DNA of 31,815 bases. Source: a virus (Duplodnaviria > Heunggongvirae > Uroviricota > Caudoviricetes). Each line of letters begins with the position of its first letter. The stretch's first letter is position 1. A program made the translations under genes and the position numbers. Of this stretch, positions 24,020 to 24,259 are shown piece after piece. The notes beneath the pieces are model-generated. The model did no database searches. It was not told the origin of the DNA and saw nothing but the letters and a program-made list of their open reading frames with translations. The stretch spans positions 1 through 31,815 of the IMG/VR virus record IMGVR_UViG_2603880148_000002; one strand, 5' to 3'.

Positions 24020-24023
24020 AACA

Positions 24024-24122
24024 TAAAAAAATCCCGCAGTGATCGCGGAGCTGCGGGGACAGACAAATGAAGATCAATGTGAAGGAGTTGTTTTTGTTAC
24101 TCGGGCAAAAAAACACTAACGC
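24024..24122 (-). ncRNA. candidate small RNA of about 100 nt in the I-J spacer (predicted, unverified)
   Basis: On the - strand: -35 TTCACA (24156-24151), 16-bp spacer, perfect -10 TATAAT (24134-24129). About 100 nt downstream a 7-bp stem CCCGCAG/CTGCGGG (24057-24033) is followed by a U7 tract (24031-24025). The predicted RNA contains AACAAAAACAAC. Confidence 0.4.
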
Positions 24123-24195
24123 AGTGAAATTATACGCGCCACAGTCAGTGTGTGAAAATGTGAAGATATTCAGAAATTTTATTCCGTCATGACGC

Positions 24196-24226
24196 AGGCA
24201 CCCGGTGAGGTGCCTGTTGTTTTTGT
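24196..24226 (+). terminator. hairpin plus T-tract just upstream of J
   Basis: AGGCACC-CGGTGA-GGTGCCT followed by GTTGTTTTTGTG. Confidence 0.35.
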
Positions 24227-24259
24227 GAGTGAACAATTATCACGGTAAGAGGTGATGTA

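Follow-up and report, generated by a model that had tools for sequence, protein, structure and literature searches.

The 240-bp spacer between tail genes I and J in the window (the whole 31,815-nucleotide stretch of phage DNA analysed) carries on its minus strand, as judged from sequence identity, the gene for PasB, a real and already published small RNA rather than a new one. We judge, with a probability of about 0.85, that pasB is a self-contained, moron-like gene for a trans-acting, Hfq-dependent sRNA whose seed pairs over the translation start sites of host mRNAs.

The PasB gene in the I–J spacer

Positions 24107 to 24025 of the minus strand are 100% identical in pairwise alignment to the 83-nt PasB RNA of enteropathogenic Escherichia coli (EPEC) E2348/69, so that the published RNA would have its 5′ end at 24107 and its 3′ end at 24025. 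In that strain (serotype O127:H6) the RNA is encoded on the minus strand of NC_011601.1 at 1466343..1466261, within prophage PP6, and its Northern probe is AATCCCGCAGTGATCGCGGAGCT (Table S6, PMC8550237), a sequence found in the window at 24030–24052. The match extends beyond the RNA itself. Specifically, window positions 24000–24280 align to NC_011601.1 1466236–1466516 (offset +1442236), and within these 281 bp the sole differences from E2348/69 are the bases at 24125 and 24135, which lie outside the published RNA and the promoter hexamers. The context is also the same, in that the E2348/69 gene lies on the opposite strand between genes annotated ‘tail assembly protein’ and ‘gpJ’. With the same strand, flanking genes I and J, terminator and U7 tail, and no difference of substance, the two loci represent one gene in different E. 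coli strains or prophages.

PasB (pathogenicity-associated sRNA B) was discovered by Hfq RIL-seq and confirmed by Northern blotting (Pearl Mizrahi et al., Sci Adv 2021, PMC8550237). According to that study, it depends on Hfq for its stability, its level falling in a Δhfq strain by a log2 fold change of −6.8 under activating and −2.4 under non-activating conditions, it is more abundant in EPEC E2348/69 grown overnight in static LB than in exponential DMEM culture, and its U-tract is tabulated as 7 U. The roughly 37 RNAs ligated to it on Hfq come from the core genome and other prophages as well as from the LEE island and the bfp plasmid. Its distribution has been surveyed in a 2026 preprint (Zhu, Shabalina and Storz, bioRxiv, 10.64898/2026.05.13.724894). 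The first-pass annotation of the window, made from the letters alone, had proposed an independent minus-strand, terminator-ended, Hfq-associated sRNA in this spacer, and the identical E2348/69 sequence supports that proposal. Its description of the RNA as antisense holds for position, which is opposite the I–J intercistronic region, and does not hold for partners, because the published interactome comprises many unlinked mRNAs. PasB matches no Rfam family, either in a search of the whole window at the gathering threshold or in a search of 23900–24400 at E ≤ 10; the only chance matches in the spacer, to Ref84, Hrs1 and the Trp leader, are all far below threshold.

Megablast locates PasB in 1106 of 5426 complete E. 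coli genomes, and blastn, which also recovers diverged copies, in 1825 of the same 5426, which amounts to roughly a fifth to a third. Records matching the window spacer at 99% identity or better number 35, and the match is 100% in 11 of the 30 complete genomes listed, including several enterotoxigenic (ETEC) isolates and ML35. Comparison of 30 distinct homologous spacer variants, which encode 21 distinct RNA sequences, shows conservation of the −10 hexamer, the terminator, the U-tail and two internal motifs amid otherwise variable sequence; elsewhere in the RNA, identity falls to 71–80%.

The spacer itself (24020–24259) separates the plus-strand open reading frames of tail gene I (23339–24019) and J (24260–27733). 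The GC fraction is 0.43 for 24000–24199 and 0.56–0.62 in the flanks, in keeping with the AT-rich 240-bp island reported earlier. A plus-strand hairpin followed by a T-tract, likewise pointed out in the first reading, is present at 24194–24227, where it forms a terminator-like element just 5′ of the J ribosome-binding site; one of its stem positions is C–G, U·G or U–A across variants. The I–J gap of phage lambda is only 60 bp long and contains an analogous hairpin without the PasB module. The plus-strand hairpin is thus part of the ancestral gap and not of PasB. Because the short lambda gap has only the hairpin, analogous to 24194–24217, we infer that the PasB module is a moron-like insertion into a lambda-like I–J gap. 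Like known morons of the lambdoid tail region such as prophage sodC, it would be a self-contained unit with its own promoter and terminator, located between late genes and expressed from the prophage, with the difference that their cargo is a protein and that of PasB a regulatory RNA. In some related prophages the I–J spacer also contains a minus-strand Cu/Zn sodC beside a PasB-like module. The idea that the PasB-like RNA in these long spacers is a sodC 3′UTR product was dropped, because sodC has its own terminator.

Promoter, transcript and terminator

The minus strand upstream of PasB carries a sigma-70 promoter at 24156–24129 that matches the consensus at 11 of 12 positions, with a −35 hexamer TTCACA (24151..24156), a 16-bp spacer and a −10 hexamer TATAAT (24129..24134), just as the near-consensus promoter had been read from the raw sequence. 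The promoter scan returned two such sites in 1.3 kb, compared with 0.5 ± 0.7 in shuffled sequences. Natural variants of the −10 hexamer (GATAAT, AATAAT, TATCAT and CATAAT) retain A2 and T6 in most cases, T6 being lost in the divergent variant L064 (GATAAA), and the −35 hexamer is poorly conserved.

From this promoter, transcription is expected to start near 24122, about 7 nt after the −10 hexamer, and the primary transcript would be 98 nt long. The RNA sequence predicted at the outset is indeed the exact reverse complement of 24122..24025. The earlier estimate of a roughly 100-nt RNA beginning near 24122 fits these 98 nt derived from the promoter, and it departs from the published RNA of 83 nt with its 5′ end at 24107. 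That published end was taken from RNA-seq coverage (PMC8550237). The sequence GCGUUAGUGUUUUUU (24108..24122, minus strand) would constitute the 5′ extension. The predicted start reads GCGUUA in 19 of the 21 distinct RNA variants and GCAUUA or ACGUUA in the remaining two, and reading of the sequence ahead of 24107 reveals no plausible −10 element. The published 5′ end coincides with the last U of an internal U7 run (24107..24113, minus strand) whose length is 5–8 U in nearly all variants. The primary RNA may be trimmed to 24107.

Further upstream lies a conserved CRP-like box, TGTGA-N6-TCAGA, at 24159..24174, centred near −44.5 from the predicted start. In the window it reads TGTGA-AGATAT-TCAGA, which agrees with 9 of the 10 core positions of the CRP site TGTGA-N6-TCACA. 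It is the single match in the 31.8-kb window, where 0.12 are expected and 8 of 100 shuffles contain at least one. All 30 spacer variants have the same half-sites, and the 6 nt between them vary. The location is non-canonical, as class II sites are centred near −41.5 and others at −61.5 or −71.5. Published data place PasB at higher levels in overnight LB, a glucose-free condition with low Spot 42. The conservation of the box suggests how the prophage may time PasB expression. Among species-representative genomes, a search with this upstream box recovered Escherichia albertii and two tiny, contamination-like contigs in non-enterobacterial assemblies; the other matches (Nostoc and others) were due to chance, and the scan gave no evidence of the module outside Escherichia.

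The 3′ end has the GC-rich stem and U7 run expected from the earlier reading. The terminator hairpin (24033..24057, minus strand) consists of a 7-bp stem, CCCGCAG/CUGCGGG, with arms at 24057–24051 and 24039–24033 and an 11-nt loop, and is followed by one A and then by U7 at 24031–24025. Sixteen of 17 variants keep the stem unchanged while differing in the loop, and the stem is the sole structure supported by RNAalifold on these 17 sequences. The same analysis found no covariation in the stem, and sequence comparison therefore neither strengthens nor weakens the terminator structure. The fold of the whole RNA is no more stable than those of shuffled sequences (z = −0.75); given this value, and support from RNAalifold for the terminator only, we do not claim a conserved 5′ stem-loop.

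An (ARN)4 tract had also been noted, and the motif AAC-AAA-AAC-AAC does occur, as part of a run of five ARN triplets. This A-rich tract, AGUAACAAAAACAAC, occupies 24087..24101 of the minus strand (RNA nt 22–36). Runs of two to five ARN triplets occur at the equivalent place in all seven variants tested, with differing sequences. The tract is likely to contact the distal face of Hfq, and it probably serves in this way rather than as a pairing seed. Hfq would then be held by the ARN tract together with the 3′ U-tail.

A candidate pairing seed and alternative readings

We propose that the single-stranded sequence UCCUUCACAUUGAUCUUCAUUUGU (24086..24063, minus strand), whose core spans RNA nt 37–60 counted from 24122, acts as the seed. 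Within it lie UCCUU and AUCUUC, the two internal motifs with the highest conservation, and conservation has independently led others to place the seed just 5′ of the terminator (Zhu et al., 10.64898/2026.05.13.724894). Complementarity was scored with a simple ungapped helix measure against the 14 top published RIL-seq targets, counting helices within RNA nt 36–61 (window 24062–24087). An initial approach, in which RNAduplex was given the whole 5′ part and target regions of 350–540 nt, yielded meaningless full-length ‘duplexes’ with large loops and was replaced by this scoring. For 11 of the 14 targets the best helix falls in nt 36–61, compared with an expectation of 3.1 of 14 for shuffled targets, whose maximum was 9 and which never reached 11 in 150 trials. 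The three exceptions, map, rplX and ffh, pair best with the U-rich 5′ part of the RNA.

The summed helix score is 316; shuffled PasB gives 275 ± 11 and shuffled targets give 282 ± 10, and none of the 500 and 150 shuffles, respectively, reaches the real value. Natural variants scored on the EPEC targets mostly give 288–300, but the divergent variant L067 reaches 315, nearly the 316 of the window type. The summed score is thus not specific by itself, and the positional clustering is the stronger evidence.

As the complement of GGA-N-AUG/GUG-AAG-A-type sequences, the seed is expected to pair over Shine-Dalgarno and start-codon regions. The predicted duplex with napF, for example, is 16 bp long (GAAGGUCAAUGUGAAG) and lies over the Shine-Dalgarno sequence and the GUG start. 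The helices predicted for tolC, caiF, gshA and yijD cover the annotated start codon or the Shine-Dalgarno sequence, that for ydbJ lies just 5′ of the Shine-Dalgarno sequence, and that for rpoS falls early in the coding sequence. RIL-seq reports proximity on Hfq and not regulation. The predicted result of pairing is that translation initiation would be blocked, that targets would be subject to RNase E decay, or both, with PasB being made from a repressed prophage and acting on host transcripts. The discoverers of PasB found no significant motif common to its targets; they report a common motif for three of the five Pas sRNAs, and the supplementary figure displays PasA, PasD1 and PasD2 (PMC8550237).

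The first-pass annotation had raised the possibility of AgvB or an AgvB-like mimic of GcvB targets, which was not borne out. According to such a model, PasB would be an anti-sRNA sponge whose A-rich tract mimics GcvB targets and de-represses dppA and oppA. PasB is Hfq-binding and prophage-encoded, as AgvB is, and has an A/C-rich ARN tract (AACAAAAACAAC); AgvB and AsxR (RF02702 and RF02703) are likewise short, terminator-ended, Hfq-bound prophage RNAs with an ARN motif, whose variants combine a common conserved 3′ part with differing pairing regions. However, neither RF02702 nor RF02703 has a match in the window at the gathering threshold or in the 501-nt region 23900–24400 at E ≤ 10, although the RF02702 model finds the genuine AgvB in prophage Sp10 of the Sakai strain at 96.5 bits, and PasB has no sequence or covariance-model similarity to these RNAs. 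AgvB is 51–60 nt long and resides at the PR′ moron site beside the Q-antiterminated late promoter, where it converges with an STnc100-type RNA (Tree et al., Mol Cell 2014), whereas PasB (83–98 nt) lies in the I–J spacer. The GcvB-target consensus CACAACA is absent from PasB, the longest contiguous helix with GcvB R1 is 6–7 bp and A/U-rich, and the duplex energy of −17.6 kcal/mol is equalled or bettered by 132 of 500 shuffles (−15.7 ± 3.3). The complementarity of PasB to its targets lies downstream of the A-rich tract. AgvB and AsxR target other sRNAs (GcvB and FnrS), whereas the PasB partners in the parts of the published lists consulted are almost all mRNAs. In the two sections of the RIL-seq table that were compared, the sRNA–sRNA pairs under activating conditions and the PasB entries under non-activating conditions, there is no GcvB–PasB chimera. 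We therefore regard a sponge of this kind as very improbable.

A role in cis is a less remote alternative, though still unlikely. PasB might act mainly by pairing with the I–J stretch of the late transcript, or its promoter might fire head-on into the operon, in either case lowering or uncoupling J; silencing of leaky late transcription in lysogens would be one example. The gene lies between I and J and is antisense to the late operon over its whole length, all the homologous prophages examined have it at this site, and such an effect would be compatible with a role in trans. Yet the complementary stretch (24025–24122), which runs from 6 nt past the I stop to about 125 nt ahead of the J ribosome-binding site, would cover no signal for translation, and lambda assembles tails with its 60-bp gap and no PasB module. 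The seed varies between prophages, in a manner that would not matter for a purely cis role, and the published partners are unlinked mRNAs, with no I–J chimera in the portions of the lists examined, although uninduced lysogens would not be expected to contain late mRNA. It is very improbable that the functional product is instead a protein of 41 residues encoded on the plus strand (24067..24192), with the minus-strand RNA incidental or an antisense regulator. This frame is intact in the window, has a GGGGA Shine-Dalgarno-like sequence upstream, ends directly before the plus-strand hairpin and T-tract, and coincides with a 33-codon ‘hypothetical protein’ annotated in one phage record. But the commonest variant has ACG in place of its ATG, another has lost this codon by deletion, and close variants differ in frame through an A-run whose length is 6, 7 or 8. 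Conservation follows the RNA and promoter features and not the codons. Furthermore, it has no Pfam match, the scan found no plus-strand promoter, and the hairpin also occurs in the lambda gap, which lacks the frame. We rejected it as a small protein gene on the grounds of the unconserved frame, the lost start and the missing Pfam match. A trans-acting sRNA pairing with host mRNAs thus remains our preferred reading of pasB.

PasB-like RNAs of O157:H7 and a possible family

Three RNAs of enterohaemorrhagic E. coli (EHEC) O157:H7 Sakai, EcOnc22, EcOnc23 and EcOnc24, were described as Hfq-CRAC peaks from prophages Sp15 (Stx1), Sp14 and Sp11, respectively, with a Northern band of about 85 nt that is destabilized in a Δhfq strain (Tree et al., Mol Cell 2014, Table S2). 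Like PasB, these peaks are antisense to the tail operon and lie within 240-bp I–J spacers of the three prophages. The Sp15, Sp14 and Sp11 spacers encode one identical 91-nt PasB-like RNA (NC_002695.2 plus strand, 2902836–2902926, 2676767–2676857 and 2166817–2166907), which shares with PasB the CRP-like box, the −10 hexamer, the U-run, the A-rich tract, the CUCC and AAUCUUC motifs, the CCCGCAG/CUGCGGG terminator and U7. The EcOnc peaks fall on nt 14–85 of this RNA only after a coordinate correction of +137 to +146, an offset calibrated on AgvB1. On these sequence comparisons, the PasB-like copies in Sp11, Sp14 and Sp15 are probably EcOnc22–24.

The O157 spacer copies are about 80% identical to the window spacer and thus represent paralogous variants of PasB, not the same RNA. 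They differ in the seed, which is CUCCAUAACGUUAAUCUUCAUCGUUCU in the Sakai RNAs and CUCCUUCACAUUGAUCUUCAUUUGUCUG in PasB, and the two target sets probably differ as well. The link between PasB and EcOnc22–24 is mentioned neither in the 2021 table entry for PasB nor in the main text of the 2026 preprint. The probable identity would join the EPEC and EHEC data sets, in the latter of which EcOnc22–24 are orphan RNAs.

With PasB already published, its presence in the window brings no element of a new kind, but it illustrates that reading raw sequence alone is able to pick out a genuine Hfq-dependent sRNA. For those working on PasB, the analysis offers a concrete candidate seed and a short list of start-site targets for reporter fusions.

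Tentatively, PasB and EcOnc22–24 may form one modular family of tail-region sRNA morons, in which a common chassis is combined with an exchangeable seed that reprograms host regulons. The chassis would comprise the CRP-like box, the −10 hexamer, the U-run, the ARN tract and the invariant terminator, and the seed of the window type would be directed against initiation sites, being complementary to the Shine-Dalgarno sequence plus AUG/GUG-AAG. If this is true, a silent prophage would damp the translation of host genes such as napF, caiF, tolC, gshA and rpoS in glucose-poor, oxygen-limited stationary phase, and a swap of about 25 nt would suffice for prophages to reprogram different host regulons.

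A PasB gene between tail genes I and J

The tail assembly gene I, which ends at 24019, and J, which begins at 24260, are plus-strand genes (ORF listing). The 240-bp gap between them has a GC content of 43%, compared with 56–62% in its flanks. A consensus scan places a promoter on the minus strand of this gap, composed of a −35 element (TTCACA, 24156–24151) and a −10 element (TATAAT, 24134–24129) that are separated by 16 bp and match the consensus at 11 of 12 positions, and the same scan recovers a minus-strand terminator-like hairpin ending in a U run. Read directly from the sequence, this terminator has the stem CCCGCAG/CUGCGGG (24057–24051 and 24039–24033), an 11-nt loop, a single A and a U7 tail (24031–24025). 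The 98-nt RNA proposed in the first-pass annotation is the exact reverse complement of 24122..24025, and the spacer, minus-strand promoter and terminator described with it are all found in the window; the observation is confirmed.

This RNA gene is already known as PasB. The region 24000–24280 is matched in 1106 of 5426 complete E. coli genomes searched by megablast, including that of EPEC E2348/69 (99.3% identity; NC_011601.1 1466236–1466516). For the latter genome, Table S6 of Pearl Mizrahi et al. (Sci Adv 2021, PMC8550237) lists PasB as an 83-nt RNA on the minus strand at 1466343..1466261, within prophage PP6 between E2348C_1436 and E2348C_1437, and gives its Northern probe as AATCCCGCAGTGATCGCGGAGCT. 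With an offset of +1442236, these coordinates correspond to 24107..24025. In a 301-bp pairwise alignment the two sequences differ only at 24125 and 24135, and neither position lies in the published RNA or in the promoter hexamers.

Given this identity and the published Hfq data, the earlier reading of the RNA as an Hfq-binding sRNA was correct. PasB was found by Hfq RIL-seq, yields a Northern band at the predicted size and requires Hfq for stability, with log2 fold changes in Δhfq cells of −6.8 (activating) and −2.4 (non-activating); it is more abundant in overnight static LB, the non-activating condition, than in exponential DMEM culture (PMC8550237). In all 37 of its RIL-seq interactions, PasB occupies the second, sRNA-type position within the chimera (PMC8550237). 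A survey of the distribution of Pas RNAs (Zhu, Shabalina and Storz, 2026 preprint) places PasB within a phage structural-gene operon, and our literature search found no PasB study beyond these two.

From the promoter, transcription would begin near 24122; RNA-seq coverage put the published 5′ end at 24107 (PMC8550237), the last U of an internal U7 run. Because no −10 element was found ahead of 24107 and the sequence GCGUUA at 24122–24117 is conserved, we tentatively favour a primary transcript of 98 nt whose U-rich 5′ end is either removed by trimming or thinly covered by reads. RNA nucleotides are numbered below from 24122. A plus-strand ORF of 41 codons (24067–24192) is not a gene: its ATG is changed to ACG or deleted in other variants, its frame is shifted among variants by changes in A-run length, and a Pfam search gave no match.

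AgvB and the EcOnc22–24 RNAs

The first-pass annotation had also raised the possibility of an AgvB-like mimic of GcvB targets, which proved wrong. AgvB (EcOnc01; Tree et al. 2014) is 51–60 nt long and maps downstream of PR′, at the moron site there; it contains the GcvB-target consensus CACAACA, a motif missing from PasB. The Rfam AgvB model has no match in the window and, as a positive control, recovers the genuine AgvB of Sakai Sp10 at 96.5 bits. The longest helix between PasB and the R1 region of GcvB comprises 6–7 A/U-rich pairs, and the duplex energy of −17.6 kcal/mol is within the range of shuffled sequences (−15.7 ± 3.3 kcal/mol; 132 of 500 at least as good). Neither the sRNA–sRNA block of the activating sheet nor the PasB block of the non-activating sheet of the RIL-seq table holds a GcvB–PasB chimera. 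Locus, length, the Rfam result, the missing CACAACA and shuffle-level pairing rule out PasB as AgvB.

Elsewhere in the window, the late-promoter region of the prophage carries a full-length STnc100 sRNA (Rfam RF02076, 132 bits; 1205–1394, plus strand), a family counted as a PasD relative by Zhu et al. (2026). An STnc100 copy in Sakai Sp10 is convergent with AgvB (comparison sequence L125); beside the window copy there is no match to AgvB or AsxR, even at E ≤ 1. At 432–508 (plus strand), the prophage also has a gene for a tRNA-Arg that decodes the rare AGA codon with its UCU anticodon.

O157 genomes contain several copies that are roughly 80% identical to the spacer in the window. Three homologous orphan Hfq-bound RNAs, EcOnc22, EcOnc23 and EcOnc24, are given for Sp15 (the Stx1 phage), Sp14 and Sp11 in Table S2 of Tree et al. 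(2014); they produce a Northern band of around 85 nt and lose stability when Hfq is absent. On the present Sakai sequence record, each of the three coordinate sets lies in an I–J spacer, antisense to the tail genes. The coordinates of that study are offset from NC_002695.2, as AgvB1 is listed at 1941783–1941835 and actually occupies 1941920–1941981, a shift of +137 to +146. Applying this shift places the three peaks on nucleotides 14–85 of an identical 91-nt PasB-like RNA, encoded at 2902836–2902926 (Sp15; L122), 2676767–2676857 (Sp14; L123) and 2166817–2166907 (Sp11; L124). On the basis of this calibration, we consider EcOnc22–24 with moderate confidence to be EHEC members of the PasB family, a link absent from the 2021 PasB table entry and from the main text of the 2026 preprint.

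A mosaic spacer

Eighty viral contigs whose I protein shares 96% identity or more with that of the window, together with several diverged E. coli and phage copies, yielded 31 distinct I–J spacers with lengths of 234–255, 338–344 and 851–903 bp. These are mosaics of two parts. The left part (roughly 165 bp) is in every case a PasB-type gene together with its promoter, and several sequence types of it occur. Conserved features, in the RNA sense, are a box upstream of the promoter (TCTGA-N6-TCACA, with invariant half-sites and a variable spacer), positions A2 and T6 of the −10 element in most variants, GCGUUA at the predicted start, a run of 5–8 U nucleotides, an A-rich ARN-triplet tract of variable sequence, the motifs UCCUU and AUCUUC, and the invariant terminator stem with its U7 tail. 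The −35 hexamer is not conserved among the variants. The terminator stem is the only structure supported by RNAalifold, which found no covariation.

The right part can be the plus-strand hairpin with T-tract seen in the window, a hairpin of another type, or a Cu/Zn superoxide dismutase gene on the minus strand (Pfam Sod_Cu, E = 8e-32) that has a terminator of its own. The terminator-like window hairpin (24194–24227, plus strand) lies just before the ribosome-binding site of J and is conserved, one of its stem positions being C-G, U·G or U-A among variants. Because some related prophages carry sodC there besides the PasB-like module, the gap is a recurrent moron insertion site. The lambda gap of 60 bp holds only an analogous hairpin (L126, 974–1033), and therefore the right part represents the ancestral gap and the PasB module a moron-type insertion. 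In a late operon under Q antitermination, an intrinsic terminator at this position before J may block transcription into J that is unmodified by the Q antiterminator.

The sodC-bearing spacers (851–903 bp) have this gene upstream of the PasB-like module (L062, 2323–2850 and L068, 2273–2932, both minus strand), and both the PasB −10 element and the CRP-like box are gone from the 851-bp type. Spacer sequence of the E. coli-prophage type also occurs on two tiny contigs that look like contamination in non-enterobacterial assemblies, with a PasB-like gene on NZ_JBHTEB010000006.1 (L092; labelled Streptomyces flavalbus, 3.4 kb) and the pre-J hairpin on NZ_BAKW01000035.1 (L085; labelled Asaia platycodi, 546 bp).

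Predicted pairing and possible control of PasB

Fourteen of the best-supported partner regions given for PasB in the non-activating sheet of the RIL-seq table were taken from the E2348/69 genome and scored for ungapped helices, allowing G-U pairs. The best helix falls within RNA nucleotides 36–61 for 11 of the 14, compared with a mean of 3.1 and a maximum of 9 for shuffled targets (none of 150 sets reached 11). The summed helix score of 316 was likewise reached by none of 500 shuffled PasB sequences (275 ± 11) and by none of the 150 target shuffles (282 ± 10); one divergent natural variant scores as high as the window type. This analysis of the published data suggests that PasB probably pairs through this seed, whose core by the same scoring is UCCUUCACAUUGAUCUUCAUUUGU (nucleotides 37–60; 24086..24063, minus strand). 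Zhu et al. (2026) independently placed the seed ‘just upstream of the terminator’ from conservation, and the motif search of Pearl Mizrahi et al. (PMC8550237) was not significant for PasB. The ARN tract noted in the first-pass annotation is directly 5′ of the seed and more probably contacts Hfq than takes part in pairing.

RIL-seq partners report contact on Hfq rather than regulation, and the PasB targets named here are predicted. The candidate helices cover the Shine–Dalgarno sequence and GUG start of napF (16 bp, GAAGGUCAAUGUGAAG), span the AUG of tolC (11 bp), extend from the start codon of caiF onward (10 bp), occupy the Shine–Dalgarno sequence directly before the UUG start of gshA (10 bp) and that of yijD within the end of fabR (11 bp), adjoin the Shine–Dalgarno sequence of ydbJ (10 bp) and fall on codons 11–14 of rpoS (11 bp). 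Two CUUCA repeats in the seed are complementary to (A/G)UGAAG, in which a lysine codon comes directly after the start codon. In the RefSeq annotation of E2348/69, rpoS is a frameshifted pseudogene (L118, NC_011601.1 3101474–3102467), and its start is nonetheless a PasB partner with 56 chimeras.

Upstream of the promoter, a CRP-like box (TGTGA-AGATAT-TCAGA, 24159–24174) matches 9 of 10 core CRP consensus positions and is the window's sole match of this kind (0.12 expected). Across 30 spacer variants, neither half-site changes while the 6-nt spacer does, a pattern that a dimer-binding site would show. Spot 42, which is CRP-repressed, behaves oppositely to PasB between overnight static LB and DMEM, but this comparison confounds glucose with stationary phase and oxygen limitation, and the box is centred at about −44.5 from the predicted start, which is not a canonical activating position. 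CRP control of PasB is therefore possible but speculative. PasB remains of interest for its function, for the seed proposed to act at start sites, for its connection with EcOnc22–24 and for this possible control by CRP.
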